Positions 3,632-19,989 are shown, counted from the first letter of the stretch. The stretch: DNA of 64,000 nucleotides from Minisyncoccia bacterium (GCA_038215155.1 JBBQRF010000001.1:142205-206204); one strand, 5' to 3'. The notes: a model not told the origin generated them from the letters alone. Made by a program: numbers and translations.

Positions 3632-3956
3632 GTTTAGTACGATGATGGTCCCGGTGAGCACGATTCGCGGGATGATGACGATGGACCTTATGGCGCCAAT
3701 GACGGCCATGCCACCAGGTAGGATATTGGCCTGTTCTAAAAGAAAAAAGATCGTAGACCAGAAGAATTACCACTGCTTCGAGTAGAAAGTGAAAAAAACC
3801 TCCTCCGGCAGGATATGCGATCTGAAGATCAACGACAAATAAATAAATCAGAAAAAATAAACACGAAAGTGCCACCACCCAGCCGGGAAAATTTACAGGA
3901 TAGTAGGCGGCAAAATCACCAATTCTTTTAGGTTTAAACCAGTAGCGATTACTCAT
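3621..3956 (-). CDS. small membrane protein with His/Arg-rich C-terminal tail
   Basis: Two predicted TM helices; tail WWHGRHWRHKVHRHHPANRAHRDHHRTKH. Confidence 0.3.
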   Translation of the reverse strand: MSNRYWFKPKRIGDFAAYYPVNFPGWVVALSCLFFLIYLFVVDLQIAYPAGGGFFHFLLEAVVILLVYDLFSFRTGQYPTWWHGRHWRHKVHRHHPANRAHRDHHRTKHAE

Positions 3957-4533: not shown

Positions 4534-5195
4534 TTATTTAATAGACTATCAATTTTAGCTTTCAAAGCGGAGACAGTTAAATTATTATCAACTTCTTCCC
4601 CATTAATGAAGACCGTAGGAGTGTGATTGAGCCCAAGACGATTAGCATCGGCTAAATCGGCGCTAATGTGATCTTGATAAGTATTATTTGTGACTTCTTG
4701 TTGAAATTTTTCTACGTTCAGGCCAAGATCTTTAGCAAAACCCTTGAAAATAGTAATTGGATCTTTTGTTACGTTAGGATCCCACTGCGCCTGATTCTGA
4801 TAAAGCATCTCGTACATTGGCCAAAATTTTCCTTGTGCGCCGGCCGCTTCTGCCGCTTCGGCGCTGACTTTTGCGTATTGATGCTGGCTTAAAGGAAAGT
4901 GACGGAAGACGAAATTAAAGTTTGGGTTATTTTGATATGAATCGGTAACTTGTTTAATGATTGGAAAGGCAGCTCCACAAGCTGGGCATTGAAAATCTCC
5001 AAATTCCACCATGGTTACTTTGGCCGTACTAGAACCGGTCATATGACTGTCACTTTTTACTAAAAGCGCAGCCTTCTCCCCACTGACGGCCGGTGGAGCG
5101 ACGAAAGAAGAACTCTTGGCAACTAAGACTCCGATAATAATTAAAAAAACTAGAGCAATACTACTGATGATGATGGCTTCGCGTGATATTTTCAT
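4530..5195 (-). CDS. DsbA/BdbD-family thiol:disulfide oxidoreductase, membrane anchored
   Basis: Thioredoxin-fold CPAC active site (FGDFQCPACGAAFP); N-terminal TM. Confidence 0.8.
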   Translation of the reverse strand: MKISREAIIISSIALVFLIIIGVLVAKSSSFVAPPAVSGEKAALLVKSDSHMTGSSTAKVTMVEFGDFQCPACGAAFPIIKQVTDSYQNNPNFNFVFRHFPLSQHQYAKVSAEAAEAAGAQGKFWPMYEMLYQNQAQWDPNVTKDPITIFKGFAKDLGLNVEKFQQEVTNNTYQDHISADLADANRLGLNHTPTVFINGEEVDNNLTVSALKAKIDSLLNK

Positions 5196-5196
5196 A

Positions 5197-5694
5197 TTAA
5201 ATATTAATTTTATTAAGATGGCGGTAAATTATCATTAGGATAGTAATTAAAGTGGAGGCGGTCAAGGCAAGGAGAGGAATGGTAATAAAGCCGCCCCATT
5301 CAATGTATTTAGTGGTGCAGGAAACTCCCTGAAGACACGGGGCGGCACTTTCTGGCAGAATATTGTAGTAGAGAAGATTGTGATAGAGGCCGAAAAGCAT
5401 GGCAGTCATAGAAAGTGGCAATACATATTGATAGACTTTATTATCTTTGCGCAAAATACCGACGGCCAGTATGAAGGCCAGAGGATAAAGAAAGATACGC
5501 TGATACCAGCAAAGCACGCAGGGAGGGAATTTCATCACTTCACTGAAAAATAGGCTCCCCCCAAGAGCTAAAAGGGAAATAAACCAGGTTAAATAGAGAA
5601 GATGTCTTTCAGCAAAAACTTTCACATTTAAATTATAACAAAGCAGGCCTCGCTTCGCGAGGCCTGCTTTTTCCCTTCTTTCTTCAGAAAACAA
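5197..5694 (-). CDS. disulfide bond formation protein B (DsbB/BdbC-like)
   Basis: 4-TM protein with CVLCWYQRIFLYP motif; adjacent to DsbA. Confidence 0.75.
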   Translation of the reverse strand: MFSEERREKAGLAKRGLLCYNLNVKVFAERHLLYLTWFISLLALGGSLFFSEVMKFPPCVLCWYQRIFLYPLAFILAVGILRKDNKVYQYVLPLSMTAMLFGLYHNLLYYNILPESAAPCLQGVSCTTKYIEWGGFITIPLLALTASTLITILMIIYRHLNKINI

Positions 5695-6555
5695 TTAATG
5701 ATGAGTGGAAGTAGCTGTGCTCGAAGCATTATGATGATTGGAAGTAGCTGTGCTCGAAGCATGCTTATGAGAATCTTTTTCCAATTCTTTTAGTGCTTTC
5801 CTAATAGTCTCAGCATCTTCTCTAGCCGCTTTAAGATCCTCCTTTGCTGTCTTAATCATGTCACGAGCATTTTTTAAGGCCTGCTGGTTAGCATCTTGTT
5901 TTGTCTTATCTCCATTGTCCGGTGTAAGGGCTAGCGTACTTGAAGCAGCAGCAGCGGCCTTTAATTTAGCGTCAGCTAGCTTTGCGTAGTAGTCACTAAG
6001 GGTGGCACTTAGACTGGAAGTGCTTCCAGTGGCCACGCCGGAGATTCTAGTCTGAAACTTAGCACCTATGCCATTCATCATATCAACTACCACATTAATT
6101 CGGTCAGCCGCCAACACAATCTCAATTTGAGGCATCACTAACTTATAGATTCGAAAAGACGAGGTAATTGAAGCGATATCATTTTTCAGAACTGTAGCAT
6201 CCGTATCAGCATCAATTTTTGCCTTTAAAGTATTAAGATCATTAATTGAAGCTTGAACTTTTGCCACTAAACTTACTTTCGAACTTGTGGCAATCTTCTT
6301 CATGTCATTAATCCGTGCTTGAAGATGAGTTAAGTCCGAGATTCTATCATCGATCATTTTATCAGCCCGGGCAATCTCATTACTTAACTTACGAGTGCTA
6401 GTGGCTGTTGATGAAGCAAGGTGTCTGTCCCCTTCGTGGTGATCTTGTGTGCTTGAAGCATCATCATGTCCCACTCTACCCCCTTCGGCCAAAGTAAAAC
6501 TAGCGGTTCCGAAAAGAAGTGCCAAACTTAAAATTCCGTATACGATTTTTTTCAT
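5695..6555 (-). CDS. secreted coiled-coil protein with His-rich ends
   Basis: Signal peptide; HHEGDRH.. / HKHASSTATSNHHNASSTATSTHH. The C-terminus is encoded by a 36-nt-period tandem DNA repeat at 5705-5764. Confidence 0.45.
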   Translation of the reverse strand: MKKIVYGILSLALLFGTASFTLAEGGRVGHDDASSTQDHHEGDRHLASSTATSTRKLSNEIARADKMIDDRISDLTHLQARINDMKKIATSSKVSLVAKVQASINDLNTLKAKIDADTDATVLKNDIASITSSFRIYKLVMPQIEIVLAADRINVVVDMMNGIGAKFQTRISGVATGSTSSLSATLSDYYAKLADAKLKAAAAASSTLALTPDNGDKTKQDANQQALKNARDMIKTAKEDLKAAREDAETIRKALKELEKDSHKHASSTATSNHHNASSTATSTHH

Positions 6556-6566
6556 ATTTGTATAAT

Positions 6567-6860
6567 TTAACGATTTCCTTGATAAAGTCCCTTCATTTGG
6601 GCATCCACCTTAGCTAGGTCTGACTGCAAGTCTGAATCAGAGTTTCCTGCCGAAAGACTGGTAGAATCCAGAGCTGAAGCTCCATTCGGATACTTATTAC
6701 TAAAGTGCTGGCTAGTAGCCATCCAGGCAATAACACCTACTATCACCAGAATTAGAACGACTCCTAGAACAGTTTGAGTATTTTTATTCATTTTTAAAAG
6801 CCTAATTAATAATTCCCTCCTGCCGCATATTATACCACAGCCTACTCGCCAGATTGTCAA
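6567..6860 (-). CDS. small membrane protein
   Basis: Single TM helix. It overlaps the next ORF by ~59 nt, so its real start may lie later. Confidence 0.3.
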   Translation of the reverse strand: MTIWRVGCGIICGRRELLIRLLKMNKNTQTVLGVVLILVIVGVIAWMATSQHFSNKYPNGASALDSTSLSAGNSDSDLQSDLAKVDAQMKGLYQGNR

Positions 6861-7839
6861 TACTAAAGGAGGAGGGAGTAACTAGTAAATAGAGGGATGC
6901 GCCAAAGAGAATAAGGTGGGGCCATACTGCCTCACCAAATAAGAATAGAGACAAAGTAAGATAGAAGAGGCTAATTGTGACGACTAAGCGGGTTTGAAAG
7001 CCGAAGATGATACATAAGCCAATGAGAGCTTCCACTATCCCCGCCCCGAGGACAATTAGCAAGGGATCGTGCGGAAAAAGAAAATGAAAACGAGGGAGAT
7101 CATAGCCATTAACTACCGCCAGAGTGATAGCGGGATGAAGAAACTTAACATAAACGGCTGCATAGAGGAGGGCCAGACCGTAACTAATTCTAATAATTGG
7201 TTGCTCCCACTCTAGTTTAGTCCAAAGCCCTCTTCTCTTAAAAAAGAGGTAGTCTAGAGAATAGATTCCGGAGCCAAAAAAGATTAAAGCAAGAAATTCT
7301 CCGACGTAGCTTAAATAATTAAATAAATAAGCGCCGAAGGCAATAGCCGAAAGCTTTAAGACTATTATAGAGATCAGCCCTGCTGCTTCAGAAAATAATC
7401 CTAAAGCGATTAGAGCGCTAAGAAGGTAGAGGACGATTCTTATATAAGGAATGAAGGTAAGCTGATTTAAAGAAAGTTCCGGTCCGAGAAAGTTTTGAGA
7501 ATAGGCAGAATAAAAAAGGGCGGCCGCAACAGCCAGTCGAATGAAGATGGCGCCAAAATTGCCCAAGCGCTCAATTTTGGCGCTCAACTTATTCCCCACT
7601 CCTGATTGTTGAAATATAAAATTAGCAATTACTAAAACAAATATTCCAATACCAATTAATACCACTAACTGAATATTGGCCGGATCTAAAAGGGCGCGAA
7701 AAGGGTGGACGGTCGAATCCCTAAAACTTTGAGCAATTTCTCCCTCTGATAAAACATAAACTTCGTGTGCACTAGAAGATATCGGGAGACTAAAAAGTAA
7801 GAGGGCTAAGAAGTAAAATAGATTTTTCCAGTTACTCAT
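6802..7839 (-). CDS. polytopic membrane protein
   Basis: About 9 predicted TM helices; stop abuts the start of the giant fibre gene. Confidence 0.45.
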   Translation of the reverse strand: MSNWKNLFYFLALLLFSLPISSSAHEVYVLSEGEIAQSFRDSTVHPFRALLDPANIQLVVLIGIGIFVLVIANFIFQQSGVGNKLSAKIERLGNFGAIFIRLAVAAALFYSAYSQNFLGPELSLNQLTFIPYIRIVLYLLSALIALGLFSEAAGLISIIVLKLSAIAFGAYLFNYLSYVGEFLALIFFGSGIYSLDYLFFKRRGLWTKLEWEQPIIRISYGLALLYAAVYVKFLHPAITLAVVNGYDLPRFHFLFPHDPLLIVLGAGIVEALIGLCIIFGFQTRLVVTISLFYLTLSLFLFGEAVWPHLILFGASLYLLVTPSSFSIDNLASRLWYNMRQEGIIN

Positions 7840-10800
7840 TAAGGTGTAGTGCTACTATCTGCAGGAGGAGGCGCGTCGGTGGCAGAAGGTGCGCTGACTG
7901 AAGAGGAATTTCCGGTTTCAGTTGGCGGAGTAGGAGTAGGAGTGGTATCTGGAGATGGATCAGCCGGTAGCTCAGAAGTTGGAGGTAAAACAGACGTTGA
8001 CGTTGCAGCAGGGGGCGTATTTATAATGACAGGAGGCGGAGGCGTTGATATGACGTTGGTAGTACTTGTAGCGTTTTCATCCAGACACTCTCCTGGATCC
8101 GTCTTCATTGCGCCATTTTGCATAGTGATGCAGTAGTACTTTCCGGTAATCTTATCTTTAATAGTAATACCCTCTTCCACTTTCACGTGCTTCACCGTCA
8201 ACCTCTCCACGAAGACATCTTTCAGATATGCAATGCCATCTACTACTTCGGCGCCAAAACTTTGAAGGGCGCCGAGAATCTCTCCCCCAATAGAGGTGTG
8301 GTTAGTAGAAAGATTAGTTAATGATTCAATAGAAGCCACTCTAATCTCAAGCTTTCCTAGTGCTTCAGTAGTCGAAGCACTGTGGGAGTCTAGTTTCTTA
8401 GAAAGAGCTTGAATACCAATAAGTGCTACGCCTGCTGGATCAATGGAGGAGATACTGGTGTCAGATCCTCCTAGGTGGAACTTTTCATAGAAATCTTGGG
8501 CTACGGGACCAATGTGAGTAATTCCAGAGTTTTCTGATTTGTAATTCCACTGTTGGATATTAAGGTTATTGATCTTGCCCAAGACTTCTTCCCCATTTAA
8601 ATCTGTGAAGTTCTCCTTGAGATTGCGGTCCGAGGCGTTGGTCCAGGTACCTCCGACTGATAGGCAGGCGCCGTTTGATGCCAAGACACTCTTGTCTCCA
8701 TTAATAGAGAGCCATCCGTTGCAGTATCCTATTTGAGAAGAAGAGGAGGTGGCGTTTGTGAGACAGGCGCCGAAGGCGGAGGCAAGACAGGCAGAGGCGG
8801 TGTTGAAGAAGCCGAATGCATTGGATGAGGTGCCGGAAGCACCATTAGTTAAACCTATTGCAGAGCTTTTGTATCCACTAGAACTATTACCTACACCGAA
8901 TGCGACCACACAAACTCCGGAAGAAGTGTTGAGGTACCCCGCAATCGAAGCTCCTAACCCACTAGCAGTATTAGCAATACCGAAGCTTGAACTTTTATAG
9001 CCGCTCGAGGTGTTAGTCATGCCAAAAGCAAAAGCACAATTATTAGAGACGGTGTTTTGATATCCAAAACCTCCCGACAAATTGCAACTGACATTATTGA
9101 GCCAACCGAAGGCATTCGAATTGGATCCTGAAGAAGTATTTTGAATACCGAAAGCCACACTAGCATTTCCACTTGAAATGTTAGATTTTCCATAAGCCAC
9201 AGCAAAGGTGGTGCTAGCAATGTTTGAGTATCCACCGACAGAACTGCCAGGACCGGAGGCGGTGTTGGAATAACCAAAACCTGAGCTGTAATCTCCTGAG
9301 GCGGTGTTGCCGTAGCCGAAGGCGGAAGATAAATTGCCCGAGGCAATATTTCTATAACCGAAAGCTGAAGCAAAACGGTTGCCACTAGCCGTGTTGCAAA
9401 GACCAAGGGCGGAGTTGTAACAACTACTAGCCGTGTTGCAAACGCCGAAGGCGGAGGAAAGGTTGCCGGAGACGGTGTTGAAGCGGCCGACGGCTGATGA
9501 GAAACCTCCAGTAGCACAATTTACAAATCCTACGGCAACGCTCCCATTCCCAGCAGTAAACCCGCTATTGTTCCCCAACCCAACCACCACGCTACCATTA
9601 AAAGCGGCATTGGCAGAATTATTTATACCGATAGCAATGTTGTTGTATCCTCCGATAGCGGCGTTGGCATTATTTCCTAAACCAAAAGCCATACTACAAA
9701 TGGCATTAGTTTGATTACACGCCCCGAATGCAGCTCCCAAACAACTACTAACGGTATTGCGGTAACCCGAGGCGGAGGAGCAGCTTCCCGAGACAGTATT
9801 GTATGCTCCGGAGGCAGAACTGCGATTATTTGAAGCAAGGTTACAAAAGCCAAATGCACTTGCGGCAGATCCGCTTGCTGTATTGCAAAAACCAAAACCC
9901 GAAGCCCCTCCACCAGAAGCCGTGTTTAAATAACCTGCAACGGAACTACTATCTCCAATTGCTCTATTACAAAACCCCACCGCCGATGCCCTGCAACCAG
10001 AAGCTGAATTATAAACTCCGCTTGCTGTGGAGTAATCTTGAGTAGCGCAATTTTGATAGCCAAATGTATTTGAAACGTACGAGGTAGAGCAATTACGCGT
10101 ACCTAGGGCTAATGATCCATAACCTGTTGCAAAACTACACCGACCAAATATGGCACTGTAATTACCTGAAGAAGTATTAGCTTCTCCGATCGCTATAGAA
10201 CTACAGGCGCTTGCAATGTTAGAGAAGCCAATAGCGTAGCTTCTATATCCACTTGCAGTATTGCAGGCTCCAACTGCAGAGGAGTACGATAGCAGTCCGC
10301 CATATCCTCCTATTCCCCCTGCTTTGTTGCAATAACCAAGAGCCGTTGATCCCGTACTTGTTGCTTGATTTCTAAATCCCACTGCACTAGCATTTACTCC
10401 AGTAGCTGAGTTCTGGAATCCCACCTCTATCGGATTCAAGTTATTAACATTGGCTGCAGTTGTGGATGAGAAATTAGAACAGAAGGTGTTAAAGTTCTGA
10501 TTAATATTATTGATCTGATTCTGTATATTCTGCACCTCGGCTTTACTGACTCCATCCATGTGACCGATGACTGATCCACCAGCGTAGGTAATGTAGTTGT
10601 TGGTGACTGGAATTGTACTTGGTTGATTGTTTGCGGTATAGATCTCTGCTTCAAGCTTGTCGTTGAGAGCTTTTAGTTTTTGATTGAGTAATGTCTCGGT
10701 GACTCCATTAACAATGGTGGTGTTGCGGATGACTGTCACAGGTCCCGAGCTTGGCGAGGGACCTGTTGGAGCAGAAGGTCCTCCACCTTGAGAGGTGTAA

Positions 10801-11258
10801 TTGTTAATGATGGTGGTAGTAGAGTAGGTAGAACGTGGCAGTGGTGGGGGTGGAGTAGTAGGTTGGATGACTTTAATGATTGGAGAAGGTGGAGTGGGTT
10901 TTTTGAATAGATCAAAGAAGGAAGAGATGATGTCTCCAATAGAACTAATGACGCTTCCAGTAAGGGATAGTGGTTTAATGAAAAGAGCGTTCGAGTTTAA
11001 AGCAAGCTGGCCATTTCGGAAGTGCGAAATGGCCAGGAATTTCTGGATATTCCCGGGTTTTAGATCAAGAGAGTTGTTGGCTATTCTCTTTAAAGGGGAG
11101 GGGGTGGTTTTTTCGCGTGGTGAAAGAGAGTTTTCGCTTCCCAGAGTGCGAAAAAGGAGGAAAATAGCTAGAGAAAGTAAGGTTAATTTAGAAAGAAGAC
11201 GTTTCATTGATCCCTCGTTAATGATGGGATTATTGTAGCATATTCTAGAGGGGTGCAA
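7839..11258 (-). CDS. giant surface fibre protein (1139 aa): ~50 Hep_Hag-like G(Y/F)xN(T/I)ASGxxSSAxG repeats plus C-terminal intramolecular chaperone (peptidase S74 / tail-fibre) domain and Pro/Thr-rich tail
   Basis: N-terminal signal. Motif WTNASDRNLKENF...GPVAQDF typical of endosialidase/tail-fibre chaperone domains. Coiled coil, a two-Cys domain (YYCITMQNGAMKTDPGEC), then a PT-rich tail. Confidence 0.7.
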   Translation of the reverse strand: MHPSRICYNNPIINEGSMKRLLSKLTLLSLAIFLLFRTLGSENSLSPREKTTPSPLKRIANNSLDLKPGNIQKFLAISHFRNGQLALNSNALFIKPLSLTGSVISSIGDIISSFFDLFKKPTPPSPIIKVIQPTTPPPPLPRSTYSTTTIINNYTSQGGGPSAPTGPSPSSGPVTVIRNTTIVNGVTETLLNQKLKALNDKLEAEIYTANNQPSTIPVTNNYITYAGGSVIGHMDGVSKAEVQNIQNQINNINQNFNTFCSNFSSTTAANVNNLNPIEVGFQNSATGVNASAVGFRNQATSTGSTALGYCNKAGGIGGYGGLLSYSSAVGACNTASGYRSYAIGFSNIASACSSIAIGEANTSSGNYSAIFGRCSFATGYGSLALGTRNCSTSYVSNTFGYQNCATQDYSTASGVYNSASGCRASAVGFCNRAIGDSSSVAGYLNTASGGGASGFGFCNTASGSAASAFGFCNLASNNRSSASGAYNTVSGSCSSASGYRNTVSSCLGAAFGACNQTNAICSMAFGLGNNANAAIGGYNNIAIGINNSANAAFNGSVVVGLGNNSGFTAGNGSVAVGFVNCATGGFSSAVGRFNTVSGNLSSAFGVCNTASSCYNSALGLCNTASGNRFASAFGYRNIASGNLSSAFGYGNTASGDYSSGFGYSNTASGPGSSVGGYSNIASTTFAVAYGKSNISSGNASVAFGIQNTSSGSNSNAFGWLNNVSCNLSGGFGYQNTVSNNCAFAFGMTNTSSGYKSSSFGIANTASGLGASIAGYLNTSSGVCVVAFGVGNSSSGYKSSAIGLTNGASGTSSNAFGFFNTASACLASAFGACLTNATSSSSQIGYCNGWLSINGDKSVLASNGACLSVGGTWTNASDRNLKENFTDLNGEEVLGKINNLNIQQWNYKSENSGITHIGPVAQDFYEKFHLGGSDTSISSIDPAGVALIGIQALSKKLDSHSASTTEALGKLEIRVASIESLTNLSTNHTSIGGEILGALQSFGAEVVDGIAYLKDVFVERLTVKHVKVEEGITIKDKITGKYYCITMQNGAMKTDPGECLDENATSTTNVISTPPPPVIINTPPAATSTSVLPPTSELPADPSPDTTPTPTPPTETGNSSSVSAPSATDAPPPADSSTTP

Positions 11259-11276
11259 GAAGATAAAAGAAGAAAA

Positions 11277-11930
11277 CTATCCTCCAAAGATGTCCATCTC
11301 GCTTAGAGGCTCAGCCTCTAAGCTCTTCCTTCGTTGAATATCCTTTATAGAATCCGAAGCAAATGATCTATAATCTTCCAGTGAGACAAACTGATCTAAA
11401 ATAACATTTTTTCCAATACAAATATCATTCGCCTCTATCTCCGACCTTTTATACTCTTCCCAGCTCGACACACTCAACTTAGAGGCTGAGCCTCTAAGGG
11501 TGTTATTTAAATTAATATAAGCGCTCAGATGAAGAAGATAGTGGTTAGAATCTATATGTTTGTTTTTATATCTTCCTTCAAAGAGACATCCGGTACGTTG
11601 ATATTTATCATTGAAATATCTGGTATAGCCGGTACTTACCCGATGCATGAATTTATTAACTCCTGAATCACTTATGGCCTTAACTAGAAAATGGTAGTGA
11701 TTGGAGTTAAGACAATATGATACAAATTCAACCAACTTAGAGGCTGAGCCTCTAAGTCCAGATCTGAAAGAGTTCACATGCAAACCTCCACCTGCGTATT
11801 CGGTATTAAAAATTATCATACTTTTAAAAAAACGCTTGAGATCGTTTGGGGCCATAAAAATATCCCGTTTATCAACACCTCGGTTATATATATGATAATA
11901 TTCCCCTTCTATAATTTTTATTTTCCTCAT
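11277..11930 (-). CDS. IS200/IS605-family Y1 (HUH) transposase, REP-associated tyrosine transposase (RAYT)-like
   Basis: YHIYNRGVDKRDIF, HUH motif NHYHFLV, catalytic Tyr region TGYTRYFNDKYQRTGCLFEGRYK, HYLLHLSAYINLN. The ORF contains three in-frame copies of a 21-nt palindrome, each translated as LRGSASK or SLEAEPLSE. Confidence 0.75.
   Translation of the reverse strand: MRKIKIIEGEYYHIYNRGVDKRDIFMAPNDLKRFFKSMIIFNTEYAGGGLHVNSFRSGLRGSASKLVEFVSYCLNSNHYHFLVKAISDSGVNKFMHRVSTGYTRYFNDKYQRTGCLFEGRYKNKHIDSNHYLLHLSAYINLNNTLRGSASKLSVSSWEEYKRSEIEANDICIGKNVILDQFVSLEDYRSFASDSIKDIQRRKSLEAEPLSEMDIFGG
11302..11322. repeat. 21-nt perfect palindrome cttagaggc(t/g)(c/a)gcctctaag, copy A (inside the 3' end of the transposase ORF)
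   Basis: Direct reading of the sequence. Confidence 0.9.
11478..11498. repeat. 21-nt palindrome copy B (inside the transposase ORF)
   Basis: Direct reading. Confidence 0.9.
11736..11756. repeat. 21-nt palindrome copy C (inside the transposase ORF)
   Basis: Direct reading. Confidence 0.9.
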
Positions 11931-11943
11931 ACTTAAGGGCCGA

Positions 11944-11964
11944 CTTAGAAGTTCAGCCTCTAAG
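11944..11964. repeat. degenerate palindrome copy D (cttagaagttcagcctctaag), 14 nt upstream of the transposase start
   Basis: Direct reading; 2 mismatches in the left arm. Confidence 0.7.
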
Positions 11965-12020
11965 TAAGATACAGAAACGTAATAAAGGAAAAATAAAAAT
12001 TAGATTAAATAGCTTCTTTA

Positions 12021-12065
12021 CTCAGTGCAGTACTTAGAGGCTCAGCCTCTAAGTACTGCACTGAG
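12021..12065. repeat. palindrome copy E embedded in a 45-nt perfect hairpin (ctcagtgcagta-[21-nt palindrome]-tactgcactgag)
   Basis: Direct reading. Confidence 0.9.
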
Positions 12066-12082
12066 TACCGTGTTAAGTAGAG

Positions 12083-12874
12083 CTATTTCCAAAAGTTGAG
12101 GTTCTCCAAGGGAGCAGCGAAGGCACCTAATACTTTTGGCCATTGAGGATCAATTGGTTCTACTTTGCTGCGAATGTCGTGAAGCCCTTTGAAACCATGG
12201 ACAGAGTCATCTTCCCAGGTCACTTGTTTTACATCCTCAAAATTATGTTTGAATGGCTTCTCATCTAAAAACTTGTAAATTTCTTCCATAGTCTTCTGCG
12301 GTTCTCGCGTCAGTTGTTCAAATTCTATAAAAAACATTCGATCTCGATATCCTCTATTAATAGCGTCGCGAATGCGAGAGTAAGCGAGACCTACTGGCTG
12401 ATCAACCTGCATCCAAACATCCACGCGCCCTTCCACTGTCTGAAATTTAAAATAATTGGCGGATTCTTGATTGATTTGTGTGGTACTGGAATTTGCTCGC
12501 CAAAGTTTTTCAAAGCTCGCAAGAATATCGCGGATGTCGCGCACTGGTACTAAAACTTTGGCTGGTCTTCCAATAACTGCTTCTGCCATTTCAATTAAGG
12601 AAAGCCAGCCCCGACATTTATCAAAGATTACTGGTTTTTCAATATCTTCGTAATAACTTTCTAGAATGCCGCGCATCACTCGCAGTAGCGCGGCGTCATT
12701 CGGCGCCGCTTGAAACTCCACTAGATTGTGCCATTGATTGCGCACACCAAACATTACATCCATGATGCCGCTCGTACCAGTAGTATGAAAGCGTGGATTT
12801 TGGGCCAGAATATTAGCAAGCAATGTTGACCCAGAACGAGGGAGGCCTGCAATAAAATGATAGGTCTTTTTCAT
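12083..12874 (-). CDS. sulfotransferase family protein
   Basis: N-terminal PAPS-binding P-loop-like GLPRSGSTLL (5'-PSB motif), size ~260 aa. Confidence 0.65.
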   Translation of the reverse strand: MKKTYHFIAGLPRSGSTLLANILAQNPRFHTTGTSGIMDVMFGVRNQWHNLVEFQAAPNDAALLRVMRGILESYYEDIEKPVIFDKCRGWLSLIEMAEAVIGRPAKVLVPVRDIRDILASFEKLWRANSSTTQINQESANYFKFQTVEGRVDVWMQVDQPVGLAYSRIRDAINRGYRDRMFFIEFEQLTREPQKTMEEIYKFLDEKPFKHNFEDVKQVTWEDDSVHGFKGLHDIRSKVEPIDPQWPKVLGAFAAPLENLNFWK

Positions 12875-12980
12875 CCTTCACATTATAACAGAGAGGAAAG
12901 AAAATATTTTAGCCGAAAAAACTAAGGATGACGCGGGCGTATAAAAATGTGTGGTATATGATTTCCATAATGATTAATTA

Positions 12981-15900
12981 TTAATTGGCAATTGAAACGG
13001 GGGCGTCTGGGGCGCTGATTGGTGCAGAGATAGTAGGAGCGGAGACGATGGGTGCTGCGATGGTTGGAACTGGAGTGACGACAGCTTCGACTGGGGCGGG
13101 ATTAGCAGGAGAGTTGCTTGGAGATGGAGCGACGCTCGCTGGTGCAACGTCTGGAGTAGGATCCGTTGGTGGAGTAACAGGAGGATGATCTATAGCACCA
13201 ATACCATCAACTGGTGAAGAGGTTGGGGCCGTTGCGACTGGAGGAGCGGATAAAGTTATAGTGTTGTTATTTGAATCGGTAGTAATAACTGAGTTAGTAG
13301 AAGTTGCGGTGGAATCAGGACACTCCCCTGCGTCACTTTTCATTTGACCATTCATAAAGTAGACACAAAGTGGTGCTCCAGTTCCCCGATCGTAGATAGT
13401 GAAGCCAGTTTTAGTAACGTCCTTGCCTTTAATGGTGAGATTCTGAGTAGTAAAGTGTTGAACAAAAACATTTTTCAGATATGAAATGCTGTCTACTATT
13501 TCAGATCCAAAGGATGTCAAAGTGCTGAAAAGTTCGGAGCCTAGACCCGCGCCTCCGGCGCCGCCCCCCATCCCCTCTTTCAATCCCTCTAAACTCTTCA
13601 CTCGAATATCAAGTGAAGCAAAAGCAGCGGTAGTAGAAGCATTTAAAACATCCTGTTTATTCATATAGTCAGTAGTGGATGCAGTGCTTGAAGCCAGGTT
13701 TTGATAAAGAGCCTTAACCGATGACATTAACAATCCATTAACGGAAACCTGATCAATTACATTTCCCCACATAAACTGTGGATCAACTTCGTCGGCAATA
13801 TATCCTAATCGTTTCTTAGCTAGCAGACTATCAGAACCATATCCTTCAACATCGTTCTTGTATCGGAAATAATGAAGAGGGGCGTCCAGGATTTTCTTCA
13901 AGCCATCATTATAGTCATCGTAATTTTCAATATCCTGCTTCGTCTCTCGTACAGAAGTTTGAGCTCCCACCACTACCCCAACGGTGTCCGTAGTCGTTGC
14001 CTGAAGAGGGTTAACTCTGACATTACCAGCGGAGTCTACCCACATAAATGTAGAGGTTCCGACTTTTCCAACAAATTGAAGAGCACCCGGACTAGCATTT
14101 GTCGCATTTGAGTTTCGCCCAAGGGTTAAGAATTGTCCTCCACTACCATTCCCTCGATCATAAGATGGTAAGACTAAGGAAGCGGTTCCTGAAGCGGCAG
14201 TGCTAAATTGCCCCGAATTTCCAATATCTAATAAGCGGGTAGGGGTAGAGGTGCCGATTCCAACCAAACCTCCGGCAGTGATATGTAAAACTGATGTTCC
14301 TGTGGATGAGGCAATGTCTAATATACCGTTTGCGCCCGCCAGACCCACCACCGAAAATCGGGAAGAACCAGTGCTTGTACCGATATTAATGACTCCATTC
14401 AAAGTATCTGCCACAAAAAGATGCGTGTTACCAGCCGACCCTTGAATTTGTAAAGCCGTCACAGAATCTGAGGTACTCTGAAAAGAAACAGGAGCACTTA
14501 CCACTCCTCTAAGTTGTACTCCGCCAATTTGGTATGACGTAAGAATTGCACCAGTTTGCAGTTGCACAGCATCAAGAAAGAAAGTTCGGCCTAAGGCATC
14601 TGTTTGTTCAATAAAAATATATGGGGTTCCGGAAATAGTACCGGAAGTAAATGTACAGGAAAATCTCTTCCATCCTCCCGTAACTACCGTAGTGTTGTTT
14701 AAAGTACAGGTTTGTTCATTTACTCCATCACTTGCTATCCCTGCTCTAATAGTAAAATTTGAGCTTGAGGCTTGGGCATAGAAAGATAAAGTGTATTGAG
14801 TAGCTGAAGACAAAGTATTTGTAAAAGCTGTGGTCTTAGCACCACTACTTGCTACAGCTGCATCAACAACTTGGAGCGAACTGATTCCGTGATACTTATT
14901 GGTAGTAACGCCAGTGATGGATCCAGATCCTAAGACTGGCGCCCATCCGTTTGTATTTGATTCAAACCCCGGATTATTCACTAAGTTAATAGTGCTTGTA
15001 TCTACCGTAAAGATAGGAGCACCCTGACTATTTTGGACCTGAAAAGCATTTGTGGTGTTTGTGGCAGTAAGAATACTTGCAGTTCCTACGACACTTAAAT
15101 TTTGCGAAGGAGTTGATGTTCCAATTCCAACATTTCCATTCTGTAGAACGGTTAAGAGAGAGATTCCTGTGGAGGAAGCAACGTTAAATGGATTTACTCC
15201 TGAGGATCCCTGAACGTTGAAGGTGAATGAAGAAGATGTGGCGTTAACTCCAGCTACAGTGGCGTTATCTAAAAATAATCCGGATGACAAAGTTGAAGCA
15301 CTGGTCCAGCGTGCTAGGAATCCATTTGTGCCTCCGGAAAGTGATCCTCCACCAATACCCAGAGTGGAGGTCGCTACCCACTGAGTGCCCGCCCCGTTTG
15401 TTTGCAAAACCATGCCATTAGTGCCGGCACTAGAATTTCTATCAAAAAATGTACCTGCAAGTGATAGCGCTCCACCAACCGAAAGGTTATTGGTGAAGGT
15501 GGAAGTGCCGGCACCGATTACAGTCGTCAGTCCGGTAAATAGGCCATTTCCGACAACGGAGAGAGCGGCCGTAGGAGACGATGTACCAATACCCACATTC
15601 GCCGTATTATTATTAAAAATATTGTTTCCGCTCTGAGTCCACACACTATTTAAAGTTGCTCCACTAAATGAAAGGCCGGTGCCCGGGGTGATCGCTGCTT
15701 GTTTACCATTAAAGGTACTCCAATCAGTTGCTGTTAGTAATCCCCTATTTGAGGCAGAGGCACTTGGCATATTAAAAGTGTGGATTGTCCCCGAAGAAAC
15801 AATGGAAAAATCTGTACCAGTAGTAGTGGTCGCAAAGGTTTGTGAAGATCCGCTAAGACCGTTAAGTGAAGTTATTCCCGATCCCCCACTAATTCCCAGA

Positions 15901-16784
15901 GTAGAGGTGGCAACCCAACGAGAAGATGTTCCTGTTGTTTGAAGCACCATACCCTGAGTTCCAATTGAGGAACTTCCATCGAAGAACCCTCCTGATAAAG
16001 AAAGTGCGCCACCAATGGATAGATTATTGTTGAAAGAAGATGTGCCAGCGCCGGAGACGGTGGTGATGCCGGTAAATAGTCCATTGCCAGCGACGGAAAA
16101 TTTTGTGCTGGGGGTGGTGGAACCAATCCCGACATTGCCGTTACTTAAAACACTGAAGACATTGGTGGCTCCACTGAAAAGATCGAAAACATTTCCCGTA
16201 CTATTTTGAGTGATGGAAAGTGCTGTTTGAGAAGATGAAGCGTTAATCGTTCCAGTTTGATCGGCTCGAACGTATTGCGTAGATGAAGCACCTCCAAGAT
16301 TATAAGATTCAATGGAGGCCGGTGTGGCGCCAAGGATTTTTCGTGGAGTCATTTCTGCATCGGATTCGATGGTGACACCAAGGTAAAGTGATTGGTTAAA
16401 ATTAACACCAGTAAATGGTGTGGTGGATCCGAGCATGATACTAAAGAGTCCACTTGTTACTTGAACCTTATTAGCTGCCGTATCACTCTCAGTCCAAATG
16501 GCCGCTCCCCCAGTGGAAACTGTGTAGAGTTTAAAAGTCATGTTATATAACCCGTCGGCCACTGCCACGTTAGAAGCGTTAGTTAATTTCCCTTGATAAT
16601 TGATCTGCTGGTTAATAGCAGCGTTTGCAATATTAAAATTAGCGCCAAAAATTGTAAAAAAAATACTCCCAGTAATAAGGAGTGTAAGTATGAGGGATCT
16701 TACGAGTGACTTATTAAGTTGTTTGTTAAATTTGCTTAACTGGACCATTTCAGAATCCCTCTGAAATCTATCCCCCTTGCTCAT
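12981..16784 (-). CDS. giant surface fibre protein (1267 aa) with internal ~190-aa repeats, CBM4/9-like domain and C-terminal intramolecular chaperone (S74-like) domain plus PT-rich tail
   Basis: Signal/TM LVRSLILTLLITGSIFFTIFGANFNIANA; repeated TTVSGAGTSSFNNNLSIGGALSLSGGFFD modules; NPGFE...GW carbohydrate-binding-like module; C-terminus paralogous to 7839..11258. The better start is probably the Met at 16748, which has GAGGGA 7 nt upstream. Confidence 0.7.
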   Translation of the reverse strand: MSKGDRFQRDSEMVQLSKFNKQLNKSLVRSLILTLLITGSIFFTIFGANFNIANAAINQQINYQGKLTNASNVAVADGLYNMTFKLYTVSTGGAAIWTESDTAANKVQVTSGLFSIMLGSTTPFTGVNFNQSLYLGVTIESDAEMTPRKILGATPASIESYNLGGASSTQYVRADQTGTINASSSQTALSITQNSTGNVFDLFSGATNVFSVLSNGNVGIGSTTPSTKFSVAGNGLFTGITTVSGAGTSSFNNNLSIGGALSLSGGFFDGSSSIGTQGMVLQTTGTSSRWVATSTLGISGGSGITSLNGLSGSSQTFATTTTGTDFSIVSSGTIHTFNMPSASASNRGLLTATDWSTFNGKQAAITPGTGLSFSGATLNSVWTQSGNNIFNNNTANVGIGTSSPTAALSVVGNGLFTGLTTVIGAGTSTFTNNLSVGGALSLAGTFFDRNSSAGTNGMVLQTNGAGTQWVATSTLGIGGGSLSGGTNGFLARWTSASTLSSGLFLDNATVAGVNATSSSFTFNVQGSSGVNPFNVASSTGISLLTVLQNGNVGIGTSTPSQNLSVVGTASILTATNTTNAFQVQNSQGAPIFTVDTSTINLVNNPGFESNTNGWAPVLGSGSITGVTTNKYHGISSLQVVDAAVASSGAKTTAFTNTLSSATQYTLSFYAQASSSNFTIRAGIASDGVNEQTCTLNNTTVVTGGWKRFSCTFTSGTISGTPYIFIEQTDALGRTFFLDAVQLQTGAILTSYQIGGVQLRGVVSAPVSFQSTSDSVTALQIQGSAGNTHLFVADTLNGVINIGTSTGSSRFSVVGLAGANGILDIASSTGTSVLHITAGGLVGIGTSTPTRLLDIGNSGQFSTAASGTASLVLPSYDRGNGSGGQFLTLGRNSNATNASPGALQFVGKVGTSTFMWVDSAGNVRVNPLQATTTDTVGVVVGAQTSVRETKQDIENYDDYNDGLKKILDAPLHYFRYKNDVEGYGSDSLLAKKRLGYIADEVDPQFMWGNVIDQVSVNGLLMSSVKALYQNLASSTASTTDYMNKQDVLNASTTAAFASLDIRVKSLEGLKEGMGGGAGGAGLGSELFSTLTSFGSEIVDSISYLKNVFVQHFTTQNLTIKGKDVTKTGFTIYDRGTGAPLCVYFMNGQMKSDAGECPDSTATSTNSVITTDSNNNTITLSAPPVATAPTSSPVDGIGAIDHPPVTPPTDPTPDVAPASVAPSPSNSPANPAPVEAVVTPVPTIAAPIVSAPTISAPISAPDAPVSIAN

Positions 16785-16937: not shown

Positions 16938-18311
16938 CTAGCGGCTAGACAGAGGGTCACAAGATTTTGCTTTTGCTCTGCGATAAAGACGAAATAGTAA
17001 ATATAGAATTAGGATGAGTAGGATCCACCATAGGTAGCACCAATTGTTTTTGGGAACGGAAGTACCTTCAGTTTGAATTTCATATTTGTCTTCTGAAATA
17101 GTTTTACCGTTGTTATCTTCCCCACCAATAAAGAATGAGTAGTGATTTATTTTTTTAAAGGACGGCAGAATACCTTGAAATGTGTTGGTGTCCCCTTCTC
17201 TCATTAAATTATAAGAATGGTAAAGTGTAGCATCATCTTCGTCCTGAACACTGACAATTAACTCTCTGAAGTTAAGTGGCAAATTTTCTATAGAAGCAAT
17301 TACTTTTAGTGGTATTCCGATTTTCACTCTGGCACGGCTATTGTAGAAATAAATCTGCTGGTTATCTTGTTCTAAATTTATTTTCACTTTTAAAGTGGAG
17401 GAATCGAGATTAATCTTGTTGGTCGAAGTAGAGGTGGGAGTGAACACTTTAACTTCGCCACTTTTAATTAACCTAACATAAAGAAGAGCGCCTGATGAAA
17501 AGTTTCCATCATTGTTCTCCACAAATGCCGCGTAGTAATAATCTTGATCAATTGATAAATTGGAATCAGTAACAGAGTTCCCCGCTCCCTTATAAATTAA
17601 TTTTCCGAATGTTGGGTCGGTGGGATAAAAATATTCAGAACGCAAGATCAAGACATCCCGAAAAGATTGATTGGAAGAATATTTCCAAGAAAGTTTAAGA
17701 TCGTTGCCTACTAATTTATAAGAAAAATTTATAACATTTATGGGAGATCGAAAACGACTTGTGGTGACGAAAGGTAATGCACCAACATAAGTGATATGTC
17801 CGTCTTTGTCAGTTGATTGGATTTTAAAATAATACTTAGTACCTGGCTCTAAATTATCCAATTCAATTTGATGATGTGTGCTGTAGTTAATTTCGGCCAC
17901 GGCGCCGTAATCCGCATCGGTATTTTTTCCCCACGATAAAGTGCCCAACGAATAACCGTAAGTTTGCCAGTGAATGATAACTGAGGTATCTGAAAGAATC
18001 TCTACTCGAATGCTTCCAGGATAAATGGCACTACCGTTAAAAGAGCCGCCTGGTGAAGTAGCAGGATTAGGATTGGAGATTGTACCGATAGTGCTTGGAG
18101 TGTTGCAATCAAGTGGGCAGCCTTGATAAGTTTCGCCGAATTGAGGCTCGCAAATATTATTGTTATTACAATTATGAACTTCGAGATTAACTACGCCGCC
18201 CGCTACGGCCGCCGCGGCGGCCGTAGCGGGCGATCCGTCGAAAAATAAAAACAGTGCGGGCAAGGTTGCCATTAATAAGAATGCCTTCCTCATTCCCATA
18301 TTATAGAGCAA
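16938..18311 (-). CDS. secreted protein with Cys-rich module, FN3-like domain and C-terminal TM anchor
   Basis: Signal peptide; CNNNNICEPQFGETYQGCPLDC; FN3-like GTKYYFKIQSTD; C-terminal WCYLWWILLILILYLLFRLYRRAK. Confidence 0.45.
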   Translation of the reverse strand: MLYNMGMRKAFLLMATLPALFLFFDGSPATAAAAAVAGGVVNLEVHNCNNNNICEPQFGETYQGCPLDCNTPSTIGTISNPNPATSPGGSFNGSAIYPGSIRVEILSDTSVIIHWQTYGYSLGTLSWGKNTDADYGAVAEINYSTHHQIELDNLEPGTKYYFKIQSTDKDGHITYVGALPFVTTSRFRSPINVINFSYKLVGNDLKLSWKYSSNQSFRDVLILRSEYFYPTDPTFGKLIYKGAGNSVTDSNLSIDQDYYYAAFVENNDGNFSSGALLYVRLIKSGEVKVFTPTSTSTNKINLDSSTLKVKINLEQDNQQIYFYNSRARVKIGIPLKVIASIENLPLNFRELIVSVQDEDDATLYHSYNLMREGDTNTFQGILPSFKKINHYSFFIGGEDNNGKTISEDKYEIQTEGTSVPKNNWCYLWWILLILILYLLFRLYRRAKAKSCDPLSSR

Positions 18312-19014
18312 TAGCCGTTACTGTAACGGAAGCTGTGTAGGTACCGGCGTCTTGAATCTTATTCGTCCCAATACCTACTTGGTATTTAATCGAGGTAGTA
18401 GCGCCCACCGGTTGATTGGCCGTACTTGTTAGAGAGATGGTCTTAGAACTAGTAGATAAGCCATCCCAACAACGGTCAGTAGTGTCAGTGGAGCCGGTGT
18501 TACAAAGGGTGCCATTATTTCTATATCGTGCAATAACATCATTGCCATGGGGAGAAAAGCCAAAAGTGGAGGAGGCAGCGCCATAAGTAAAAGTAAAATC
18601 GGGAGCGGCTCCAACAGGCAGATAGTCTGTGATGCTAGAGCTGGCTGATTTTAGCGCGGGGGAAGTAGTAGCGGTAACTGAAAGTTGATAACCAGCCGGA
18701 TCATCAGTTACTACTACCCAATCTGATTGAGCTTGACTGGTGCCTCCAGAAATACCCCCAATACTTGGTAGAGTAATGTTAACTGTATTAGAAAGTGCTA
18801 TGTAATTTGCAGATAAAGCTTGATATCCGGCACTCAATCTATAATTTGTACTGGTGCCAAATCCGGTCCCCACTTCACCCACCGTACTTTCTGTTTTGTA
18901 ATTAGTGCTAGTGCCTAATCCCCCTCCACTATTAAGACTATCGGACTGAATCCGATAGGATCCACTCTGCATCACATAAGCTAATAGAACTATTGGAATG
19001 AAAAGGCTTTTCAT
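18301..19014 (-). CDS. secreted Thr/Ser/Gly-rich beta-rich protein, pilin/SCPU-like subunit (paralog of 19995..20648)
   Basis: Signal peptide; shared block W.V.TDD.AGY.L..T and C-terminal AGTYTASVTVTAIAL. Confidence 0.45.
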   Translation of the reverse strand: MKSLFIPIVLLAYVMQSGSYRIQSDSLNSGGGLGTSTNYKTESTVGEVGTGFGTSTNYRLSAGYQALSANYIALSNTVNITLPSIGGISGGTSQAQSDWVVVTDDPAGYQLSVTATTSPALKSASSSITDYLPVGAAPDFTFTYGAASSTFGFSPHGNDVIARYRNNGTLCNTGSTDTTDRCWDGLSTSSKTISLTSTANQPVGATTSIKYQVGIGTNKIQDAGTYTASVTVTAIAL

Positions 19015-19989
19015 CTATCTCTTTCTCTTGAATTCAAAATTCTTTCGAAGGAAGTAACTAGCTGAGACGATAATTAATAGAATGAGGAGTACAATAGCAA
19101 TCCACTTCCAAGGAATAACCCAGATTGAAATTTTAAGAACATCGGTAGTGCTGCCGTATCCTCTATTGAGGGAAACTTCGGCAGTGTAACGGCCAAAGGC
19201 AGCGGTTCTTCCCCATGGAATTTCTCGATAGCGAAGGGAGTGCGGTAGAGCGAAATAGGCATCAACTGGTAACTGATCTACTGTTGCCCCCCACATATTT
19301 TTAACCGTGATATAGCCATAAGGAACTAAGTGAACATTTCCATCATTGTTAAAGTAGATCTGAAAAGTTAAATTAGCGTTTTGGTAAACCGGTCCTTTTT
19401 CTTTAACCCGAAAATCTGAAAGGTGTCCACTTTGTGTGACTGGTCCGTTTACTCTAACAAAGAATAGTGAAGCGATTCGCGAAATGATGGTAGCTCCGGG
19501 CGCTTCGGCTGCACCGGTAGTGGTAGCTCCGAGCTTCGAAGGAGCATTAGAAACTATCATAGCCGCGTAGAATCCGCCCGGTGCAGCGGTTTTTGGAAGT
19601 TCTATTGTAACGGGAATTTGAATTCGTTGGCCAAAATTTAGAGTAAACTGTTTAATCTCTGGATGAAGATAATCTTTTAAGGAATATGGACTCTTGTCCC
19701 CTCCCAATAAAATAACAGGCTGATCTATTTGATTAGAGCCGATGATATCTTCGGAGGTAAGTGCGAAAGTTATTGGACTCTTCACCCGGCTCGTAATGGA
19801 AATACTCCGAGTGGCAGACTCCCCCGGATTAATATTTACTTCTTGTTTGGCTGGCTCAACAATAAAATCGTTCCTGTCGGCAACAGTGCTTTGGAATAAA
19901 GTGTAAGCTCGAAGAGCTATAGCTCCAACTAATAAGAAGATGACGATACTACTGATAGAGAGAAGCAGTTTCTTCTTATTGTTGGGCAT
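19015..19989 (-). CDS. membrane protein anchored at both ends (N-terminal signal-anchor, C-terminal TM plus basic tail)
   Basis: MPNNKKKLLLSISSIVIFLLVGAIAL... ; C-terminal WKWIAIVLLILLIIVSASYFLRKNFEFKRKR. Confidence 0.45.
   Translation of the reverse strand: MPNNKKKLLLSISSIVIFLLVGAIALRAYTLFQSTVADRNDFIVEPAKQEVNINPGESATRSISITSRVKSPITFALTSEDIIGSNQIDQPVILLGGDKSPYSLKDYLHPEIKQFTLNFGQRIQIPVTIELPKTAAPGGFYAAMIVSNAPSKLGATTTGAAEAPGATIISRIASLFFVRVNGPVTQSGHLSDFRVKEKGPVYQNANLTFQIYFNNDGNVHLVPYGYITVKNMWGATVDQLPVDAYFALPHSLRYREIPWGRTAAFGRYTAEVSLNRGYGSTTDVLKISIWVIPWKWIAIVLLILLIIVSASYFLRKNFEFKRKR

Follow-up and report, generated by a model that had tools for sequence, protein, structure and literature searches.

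Candidate S74-type surface fibres with an additional C-terminal cassette in a Paceibacterota bacterium

We describe two large genes in a 64-kb stretch of bacterial DNA (hereafter the window: 64,000 nt, JBBQRF010000001.1:142205-206204; all coordinates are positions within it). They are the outer members of a block of four minus-strand genes, the inner two encoding a sulfotransferase and a transposase of the REP-associated tyrosine transposase type (RAYT; REP, repetitive extragenic palindrome). Both large proteins, called protein 1 and protein 2 here, contain an intramolecular chaperone domain of the S74/ICA type (ICA, intramolecular chaperone auto-processing) with an intact Ser-x4-Lys dyad, and we consider it rather probable that both are Sec-exported homotrimeric surface fibres of a Paceibacterota bacterium, akin to the mosaic adhesive trimer (MAT) fibres of Bdellovibrio and to phage tail fibres. 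The affiliation of the organism was read from SecA homologues. Because the nearest named relatives of the window's SecA are Candidatus Paceibacterota (85% identity), Pacebacteria and Parcubacteria, the DNA is assigned to a Paceibacterota member of the candidate phyla radiation (CPR), in agreement with an earlier note on this sequence that had proposed a tiny cell as its source.

An S74-type chaperone domain in both proteins

The earlier note had placed a tail-fibre-type chaperone (peptidase S74) in both proteins, and the domain is indeed present in each of them. In protein 1 it is recognised directly by the Pfam family Peptidase_S74 (PF13884; 2.7e-12, 47.2 bits against a cut-off of 22). In protein 2 the Pfam scan found only the CBM_4_9 module and no Peptidase_S74, a narrow S74 hidden Markov model (HMM) made from protein-1-type matches gave only 3.4 bits, and the PDB yielded nothing to a profile of the protein 2 subfamily. 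Nonetheless, we accept the domain in protein 2 because four lines of evidence agree: five of its closest relatives have precomputed PF13884 matches, the S-x4-K motif is kept in all its closest relatives, hhalign aligns the core of its subfamily to the canonical core (94% probability, E 1.2e-7) with the dyad in register, and the predicted fold matches.

The dyads read S859-DRNL-K864 in protein 1 and S932-VRET-K937 in protein 2, and their Ser and Lys are conserved across both subfamily alignments. The AlphaFold2 (AF2) models of both proteins show the fold of solved ICA domains. In Foldseek searches, the best match of both is the ICA domain of MyRF (myelin regulatory factor; 7dc3), a eukaryotic transcription factor of the endoplasmic reticulum membrane; for protein 2 this match (probability 1.0, TM 0.55) is followed by 3gw6. 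The protein 1 model has a pLDDT (predicted local distance difference test) of 76 overall and above 90 in its S74 part. Cleavage is predicted after Ser859 and Ser932, with 263 and 323 aa, respectively, following the nucleophile; the domain is thus not at the end of either protein. What had been described as a coiled coil behind the domain is helical, but corresponds to the helical part of the chaperone domain itself together with a linker helix.

Fibre bodies, termini and post-chaperone cassette

The two large open reading frames (ORFs) reported earlier, of 1139 and 1267 aa with the sulfotransferase and the RAYT between them, exist as described, although their likely true lengths are 1122 and 1255 aa. 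We place the probable starts at ATG 11207 and ATG 16748 because each is accompanied by a GAGGGA-type ribosome-binding site (GAGGGA 4 nt 5' of the former, AGAGGGA 8 nt 5' of the latter). The public gene call of protein 2 also has 1255 aa and begins at Met13 of the mechanical ORF. A signal or anchor sequence had been proposed at both N-termini, and each protein has a single hydrophobic segment, at its N-terminus; a C-terminal hydrophobic segment was found in neither. From these N-termini both proteins look Sec-exported, and plausible signal peptide cleavage sites (TLG↓SE and ANA↓A) can be read in them. Directly behind its signal sequence, protein 1 has a Pro-rich linker. The same layout prevails among 64 long proteins that carry the two-Cys module described below: 41 of the 64 have an N-terminal hydrophobic segment and only 4 a C-terminal one.

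The earlier note called the two proteins paralogous. This applies to their C-terminal cassettes, as BLASTP finds only the C-terminal ~260 aa in common (2e-30, 30% identity); the fibre bodies are unrelated. In protein 1 autocorrelation peaks at 14, 28, 42 and 56 residues, and the 14-residue period extends from about residue 280 to 835. The Hep_Hag/YadA-type units recognised before are therefore real, but number about 40, of 14 residues each, rather than about 50. In a phmmer search of the PDB they match the heads of trimeric autotransporters (CbpF at 1.4e-13, a cell-surface protein at 1e-8, BpaC and Hep_Hag); the NCBIfam Ata model is matched at 1.2e-13, and Pfam YadA_head at 22.1 bits, just under its cut-off of 25. 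Ser, Thr, Asn and Gly abound in the repeats (Ser makes up 15% and Asn 10% of the protein), which are also unusually rich in Cys; 27 of the 29 Cys of protein 1 lie in or beside the repeat region. We ruled out that protein 1 is itself a trimeric autotransporter because the beta-barrel YadA membrane anchor (PF03895) was found in it by neither Pfam nor NCBIfam; its C-terminus consists of the S74 domain and the cassette.

The body of protein 2 is of another kind. Repeats of ~190 aa had been reported for it; the repetition stands, with a period of 179 aa and two copies, of which only a core of ~78 aa is well conserved (BLASTP, 69% identity, E 4e-32). Four capping loops, of a type known from MyRF and MAT fibres, lie at residues 218, 397, 552 and 841 (1267-aa numbering); none was found in protein 1 when its sequence was searched for the motif VGI(G/N)xxxPxxxL. 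Through this motif, a profile search also reached the Bdellovibrio fibre Bd2133 (8ond), with an E-value (0.83) that is not significant. The suggested CBM4/9-like carbohydrate-binding module is well supported by Pfam (Table 1). The NCBIfam model GTA_spike_fiber matches protein 2 at 1.8e-7, under its cut-off.

S74 domains are common in cells. A scan of one genome per GTDB species recovered at least 588 cellular S74 stretches, from Bacteroidota, Zixibacteria, Ignavibacteria, Verrucomicrobia, Patescibacteria and others, often within ORFs of 500-3800 aa and sometimes in tandem. The view that the architecture is unusual outside phages does not survive this census, nor the precedent of the Bdellovibrio MAT fibres (PMC10769870). 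Relatives of the protein 1 body adjoin S74 in Bacteroidota; those of the first 600 aa of protein 2 come from Anaerolineales, Ignavibacteriales and Zixibacteria. The S74 fibre family is therefore mosaic.

The composition of the bodies raises the question of whether these proteins serve a structural purpose, as a glycosylated fibril coat, sheath or matrix, instead of recognising a host. A comparable case could be the pond-water glycofibril TLP-12, a trimeric fibril that is built of short repeats and heavily glycosylated, with ICA domains at the end of its candidate proteins (2025 preprint). The abundance of Ser, Thr, Asn and Gly in the repeats and the occurrence of S74-ended proteins in many free-living, host-less phyla would fit such a role. 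We nevertheless regard it as improbable: the head repeats of adhesin type and the CBM4_9 module speak for ligand binding, no glycosyltransferase is adjacent, and the TLP-12 candidates are eukaryotic. Surface fibres that bind a ligand thus remain our preferred interpretation.

Behind the chaperone, both proteins carry the two-Cys module and the Pro/Thr-rich tail that had already been noticed. Together with the preceding helix these form a cassette, composed of the helix SFGAEIIDGIxYLKxVF..KLTV, the beta module GITLYDxxTGxPYCxxxxNGxxKxxxGEC and a tail rich in T/S/E/P/D (mean 116 aa). The module matches no Pfam or NCBIfam family and no fold in the PDB, and in the AF2 model of protein 1 its strands reach a pLDDT of ~90. 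We searched 1.84 billion cluster representatives with a profile of helix and module (69 positions), which gave 1809 matches at E<=1e-3 and 421 at E<=1e-10. Almost always, 60-250 aa separate the module from the C-terminus, and the proteins reach 3910 aa. Both Cys are kept in all of the top 140 matches, 139 of which also keep the 14-residue spacing (Cys-x14-Cys). Most carriers have an S74 domain, belonging to one of at least three subtypes.

In Patescibacteria loci, 200-440 aa follow the S74 Ser, whereas in most other loci the protein ends ~100-135 aa after it and only a few reach ~225 aa. Among 80 cellular S74 loci the module was found only in metagenome-assembled genomes (MAGs) of Patescibacteria and in one unclassified MAG, and the module HMM detected it in none of 61 viral S74 loci. 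The viral loci had been gathered with the S74 alignment before being scanned, as the module alignment itself is too variable for a locus scan. The cassette appears to be undescribed, and among named genomes it has so far been seen only in Patescibacteria.

A few further observations concern the carriers. Two module proteins (P0158, P0273) and some S74-positive ones share an upstream motif, G(D)xITSSxxxGxxMKAT...G.V(I/V)G.AL, of no known family. The best match of the module profile (P0139, 3125 aa, 3.2e-35) consists of 10 separate stretches that cover only the helical first half (positions 6-44); it is a giant protein in which the cassette helix is repeated many times, and members of its cluster reach 7775 aa. 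Many database 'proteins' of 250-370 aa that start just before S74 are artefacts, namely fragments from contig edges or frameshifts and not stand-alone chaperone genes. Of two such loci (L082, L083), one comes from a long-read contig riddled with frameshifts, on which tRNA ligase genes are fragmented, and the other is cut by the contig end. Repeat-rich fibre genes seem to break assemblies.

Known relatives and a proposed mode of assembly

Cellular fibres that end in S74 are an already known kind. The MAT family of B. bacteriovorus comprises 13 S74-ended surface fibres of ~1000 aa, in which a signal peptide is followed by a conserved beta-rich N-terminal domain of ~130 aa; self-cleavage at SDxxxK has been proven for Bd3182, the fibres act in prey handling, and the capping-loop motif has been described for them and for MyRF (Caulton et al. 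2024, PMC10769870). Proteins 1 and 2 resemble them in their cellular genome, signal-type N-terminus, predicted trimeric fibre of about 1000 aa, C-terminal S74 domain with S(D)xxxK and mosaic bodies on a shared terminus, and also in the lifestyle of an organism that lives on other bacteria. The capping loop, which we read from MyRF and protein 2 as VGI(G/N)xxxPxxxL, occurs four times in protein 2, the published MAT consensus being one residue shorter. The differences lie in the organism, a CPR bacterium instead of a Gram-negative predator (CPR bacteria are generally thought to lack an outer membrane), in the 150-210 aa that run past the chaperone as helix, two-Cys module and low-complexity tail, and in the body of protein 1, built from YadA-head-like repeats without capping loops.

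The ICA domains of phages (K1F endosialidase, 3GW6; T5 L-shaped fibre pb1, 4UW8) share the fold, the Ser-Lys dyad and the place C-terminal to a repetitive fibre. They differ from ours by their phage context; here, export signals are found at the N-termini, the domain is not at the extreme C-terminus, and that of protein 2 is too divergent for Pfam. The MyRF domain (7DC3) is the best structural match for both proteins, is likewise preceded by the capping-loop motif, and the polypeptide likewise continues behind it. In MyRF, however, a transmembrane helix and a luminal domain follow, in place of the soluble two-Cys module and low-complexity tail seen here. Finally, the 14-residue repeats of protein 1 align to the solved heads of trimeric autotransporters (YadA, Hep_Hag, Ata, BpaC, CbpF), but there is neither beta-barrel anchor nor outer membrane, S74 would take over trimerisation, and the orientation is reversed, with the anchor at the N-terminus.

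Based on these comparisons, we propose the following course of assembly. The N-terminal hydrophobic segment present in each protein would act as signal or anchor and thread the unfolded chain through SecA/SecYEG. The C-terminal S74/ICA domain would emerge last, trimerise, and nucleate folding of the body from the C- to the N-terminus, as the structures of endoNF, T5 and MyRF and the case of Bd3182 suggest. Folding might yield a YadA-head-like beta-roll of ~40 repeats in protein 1, and in protein 2 a beta-helical stalk with capping loops and a lateral CBM4_9 module. The Ser-x4-Lys dyad, which both proteins have within the appropriate fold, could then cut after Ser859 or Ser932. The mature fibre would be held by its N-terminal end and expose a new C-terminal tip, with the Pro-rich linker of protein 1 possibly serving as a tether; the released fragment (263 or 323 aa) would be longer than in phages or other phyla and bear the cassette. 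The Cys-x14-Cys pair probably forms a disulfide, made by DsbA and DsbB, both encoded in the gene run behind protein 1. More speculatively, in an envelope without outer membrane the cassette may help to register the trimer and to control its quality. As for function, the CBM4_9 module, the adhesin-type repeats and the analogy with MAT fibres suggest binding to carbohydrate-rich surfaces, most plausibly those of the host cell, and adhesion to a host is therefore a plausible role.

Several points weigh against this interpretation. That the proteins form trimers, cut themselves, sit at the surface and bind a ligand is in each case inferred. The AF2 models (pLDDT 76 and 67) show single chains, although the trimer is obligate, and the E-values from Foldseek are modest (3e-3 and 8e-3). 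In protein 2 the nucleophilic Ser is followed by Val where Asp is canonical, and the S74 domain scores below Pfam detection. Should the signal peptides be removed, the mature fibres would have to be attached in some other way, or else be set free. What the cassette does is a guess, and the linkage to dsb genes is not conserved in the related loci examined. Moreover, at least three long module proteins (P0158, P0204, P0273) have no S74 domain detectable by Pfam or our HMMs; the module is, for this reason, not strictly a chaperone accessory and can follow other kinds of C-terminal domain.

The question of attachment leads to an alternative modelled on MyRF, in which sequence also follows the ICA domain and cleavage frees the N-terminal trimer. 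Here the cassette would hold the precursor at the membrane or wall, and cleavage would shed the fibre into the medium or onto a Pam-like pilus. The MyRF domain being the best fold match, the 200-440-aa extension that sets the Patescibacteria proteins apart, and the plausible signal peptide cleavage sites (TLG↓SE, ANA↓A) would all agree with such a release, as would the location of protein 2, 190 bp downstream of a Pam-like gene cluster (see below), and the pam-linked 'tail fibre-like protein' of a recent preprint. Yet neither tail has a hydrophobic segment, a sortase motif or a known wall-binding domain, the Pro-rich linker behind the signal of protein 1 fits an N-terminal tether, and the similarly laid-out MAT fibres are attached to the surface. 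We judge shedding of this kind to be unlikely and favour fibres that are retained at their N-terminal end.

In the literature searched, we found no paper that links Patescibacteria with S74 fibres, except for a remark on gene neighbourhood in the preprint on Pam pili (10.64898/2026.03.03.709456). The distinctive part of the present system is the post-chaperone cassette. The earlier note had not singled it out, nor had it noticed the position of protein 2 beside a Pam-like cluster and that of protein 1 at the head of a run with DsbB and DsbA. Tentatively, and with less confidence than we have in the fibres themselves, we suggest that the cassette is an assembly or quality-control device, so far seen only in Patescibacteria, by which a very large and mosaic set of exported trimeric fibres can be recognised, with at least 1800 clusters at 50% identity and proteins of up to ~3900 aa. 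In CPR bacteria this set would correspond to the MAT fibres of Bdellovibrio and to the receptor-binding proteins of phages, and would determine the host range of episymbiotic cells, possibly acting together with Pam-type pili.

The recognition of hosts by CPR/Patescibacteria, and their hold on them, have to date been tied only to type IV pili and, since very recently, to Pam pili. With swappable bodies on a shared, predicted self-cleaving C-terminus, S74 fibres are candidate host-recognition proteins. The combination of S74 and the C-x14-C module offers a simple sequence handle for genome-wide censuses, and the biochemical predictions are testable: the chain should be cut behind a defined Ser, and the fragment set free should contain a disulfide. 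Even if the fibres are not adhesins, the cassette is an uncatalogued and widespread protein domain that deserves a family entry.

Neighbouring genes and cellular context

Table 1. Position of the features discussed (window coordinates) and the basis on which each was assigned. An arrow marks the predicted cut.
Feature	Position	Strand	Basis or remark
Protein 1	7839..11207 (mechanical ORF 7839..11258)	-	1122 aa from ATG 11207; 1139 aa from TTG 11258
Protein 1, signal peptide or signal anchor (MKRLLSKLTLLSLAIFLLFRTLG)	11139..11207	-	Sole hydrophobic segment, aa 4-23
Protein 1, ~40 tandem 14-residue YadA-head/Hep_Hag-like repeats, G[FY]xNxASGxxSSAxG	8754..10421	-	Autocorrelation, PDB matches
Protein 1, S74/ICA chaperone core	8391..8660	-	Ser859 (codon 8631-8633) predicted nucleophile, Lys864; TNAS↓DRNLK
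Protein 1, post-chaperone helix (SFGAEVVDGIAYLKDVFVERLTV) and beta module with invariant Cys pair (YYCITMQNGAMKTDPGEC)	8076..8279	-	Module HMM 2.3e-33
Protein 1, low-complexity Pro/Thr/Ser-rich C-terminal tail	7842..8075	-	Sequence; no hydrophobic anchor
RAYT-like Y1 (HUH) transposase gene	11277..11930	-	Pfam Y1_Tnp
Five copies of a 21-nt perfect palindrome, CTTAGAGGCT(C/G)AGCCTCTAAG, REP-like	11302..12053	none	None expected by chance
Sulfotransferase	12083..12874	-	Pfam Sulfotransfer_3 and Sulfotransfer_1
Protein 2	12981..16748 (mechanical ORF 12981..16784)	-	1255 aa from ATG 16748; 1267 aa mechanical
Protein 2, two copies of a 179-aa repeat	15114..16187	-	Autocorrelation lag 179; each begins with a MyRF/MAT-type capping loop VGIGxxxPxxx[LF]
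Protein 2, CBM4_9 carbohydrate-binding module within the fibre body	14634..14987	-	PF02018 2.4e-13, 51 bits against a cut-off of 25.9
Protein 2, divergent S74/ICA core	13707..13985	-	Ser932 (codon 13953-13955) predicted nucleophile, Lys937; AQTS↓VRETK
Protein 2, post-chaperone helix and two-Cys module (LCVYFMNGQMKSDAGEC)	13311..13532	-	Module HMM 1.5e-29; aligns with the protein 1 module
Protein 2, Pro/Thr/Ala/Ser-rich C-terminal tail	12984..13310	-	No anchor
Gene run behind protein 1	3949-7839	-	345-aa DoxX-like membrane protein, 97 aa, 286-aa helical protein with His-rich ends, DsbB, DsbA, 194 aa; almost no gaps
Pam-like four-gene surface cluster	16938-20648	-	Directly upstream of protein 2, 190 bp away
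Type IV pilus cluster	54651-63712		Prepilin peptidase, PilC-like T2SSF protein, two T2SSE ATPases, PilM

The window is cellular and not a prophage. Nearly all larger ORFs of the 64 kb were scanned with Pfam, and the ten genes in and beside the block with PHROGs; neither revealed capsid, terminase, portal, tail, integrase or lysis genes, in accordance with the earlier note's statement that phage genes are missing nearby. The PHROGs scan gave weak or unnamed matches only. The remaining genes are those of a cell, including TGT, FKBP, DsbA, DsbB, Obg, SecA, ABC transporters, CTP synthase, FtsEX, a release factor, LigA, GatA and a type IV pilus cluster. The S74 core is 55-68% identical to that of cellular Bacteroidota and Patescibacteria and at most 47% identical to that of any viral contig, and of the related S74 loci in Saccharibacteria (L004 and L007), a group with cultivable members, one (L007) has tRNA ligase genes on its flanks. 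It is true that S74 was first known from phage tailspikes, that NCBI names relatives 'tail fiber domain-containing protein', and that protein 2 has a weak PHROG match (0.00098). Given the lack of phage genes, the cellular affinity of the core, the Sec-type N-termini of both proteins and the absence of the cassette from all 61 viral loci, it is nevertheless extremely unlikely that these are tail-fibre genes of a prophage, a prophage remnant or a tailocin, and we return to the reading as cellular fibres.

The stop of protein 1 and the start of the following gene share the sequence TAATG, and the genes behind it follow almost without gaps (Table 1). Protein 1 and this run, from the gene for the DoxX-like protein to those for DsbB and DsbA, probably form one operon, which would link a Cys-rich fibre to disulfide machinery. 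Such a neighbourhood fits a Cys-rich exported protein and seems a more meaningful link than the one to the sulfotransferase. In a scan for promoters and terminators, promoter-like sites were no commoner than in shuffled sequence, and terminator-like sites were about twice as frequent.

On its other side the block adjoins a cluster that encodes a 457-aa fibronectin type III (FnIII) protein and a 324-aa protein, both with a C-terminal transmembrane helix and the latter also with a signal sequence, together with a 237-aa PamT-like protein and its 217-aa paralogue (32% identity, 8e-17); these last two are both small and secreted. The only Pam component matched is CPR_pilus_PamT of NCBIfam, by the 237-aa protein, and that match is weak (2e-7, 30.7 bits against a cut-off of 240). 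In gene content the cluster nonetheless seems to resemble the Pam pilus operon of CPR bacteria, and may be a more meaningful neighbour than the sulfotransferase. The Pam operon, of a CPR-type, chaperone-usher-like pilus, is reported to co-localise with a 'tail fibre-like protein', and Pam homologues are reported mainly from Saccharimonadia and Microgenomatia and not from Paceibacteria (Troman et al., bioRxiv 2026, 10.64898/2026.03.03.709456). In that work the 'tail fibre-like' gene is an uncharacterised node of the neighbourhood only; its likeness to protein 2 is one of genome position. We found no pam genes near two other Patescibacteria S74 fibres: the upstream genes of L007 are housekeeping genes and two ORFs of L003 had no match. 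In two loci outside the CPR, L046 (930-1508) and L074 (11740-12201), a small ORF resembling the 237-aa PamT-like protein lies directly 3' of the S74 fibre ORF (phmmer, 5e-7 and 8e-5), which hints at a recurring pairing of a fibre with a small secreted protein outside the CPR. Counting the type IV pilus cluster, three separate systems of surface appendages may be encoded in the window, the other two being the Pam-like cluster and the S74 fibres.

The earlier note had paired the fibres functionally with the sulfotransferase that lies between them. The enzyme matches Sulfotransfer_3 (8.6e-17) and Sulfotransfer_1 (4.5e-14) of Pfam over its full length, has an intact PRSGST loop for 3'-phosphoadenosine 5'-phosphosulfate (PAPS), and starts with MKKTYHFIAGLPRSGST, in which no signal peptide is found; it is a cytoplasmic PAPS-type enzyme. 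Its match to the phage family phrog_27463 (1.6e-53) covers the full length, and it is ~30% identical to enzymes of the Synechococcus phages S-SKS1, S-SRM01 and S-SCSM1 and of marine single-cell viruses. If the three genes were one unit, the enzyme would sulfate the fibres or their glycans, and it is true that the genes are adjacent on the same strand and that the enzyme appears complete. However, neither phmmer nor a search for the P-loop motif turned up a homologue of the sulfotransferase or a P-loop candidate at any of 80 related loci, 12 of them from Patescibacteria. Moreover, since it has no signal peptide, the enzyme cannot act on an exported, folded fibre; the RAYT and five REP palindromes between enzyme and protein 1 mark a rearrangement-prone junction, and the nearest annotated relatives are cyanophage sulfotransferases. 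A sulfation unit is therefore very unlikely. We treat the adjacency of sulfotransferase and RAYT to the fibres as incidental, and the two as unrelated neighbours, because none of the 80 related loci has a homologue of the enzyme, the enzyme lacks an export signal, and the RAYT/REP cluster separates it from protein 1.

The RAYT-like gene is matched by Pfam Y1_Tnp (4.2e-8) and, under the cut-off, by REP_Tyr_transpos of NCBIfam (0.0014); it combines the Y1/HUH domain and the REP palindromes by which a RAYT is recognised. The 21-nt palindrome occurs nowhere else in the window. Three of its five copies lie inside the RAYT ORF, which stays open, and two in the spacer before the sulfotransferase; two of the internal copies, on either side of the Y1_Tnp core, are translated in frame as LRGSASKL. 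The palindrome is also present in 12 metagenome contigs, 11 of which have no RAYT; the remaining one (L147) encodes a RAYT homologue (E 4e-65) with palindromes inside the gene and at its edges. The palindrome thus looks like a REP element with conserved copies within its own transposase gene.

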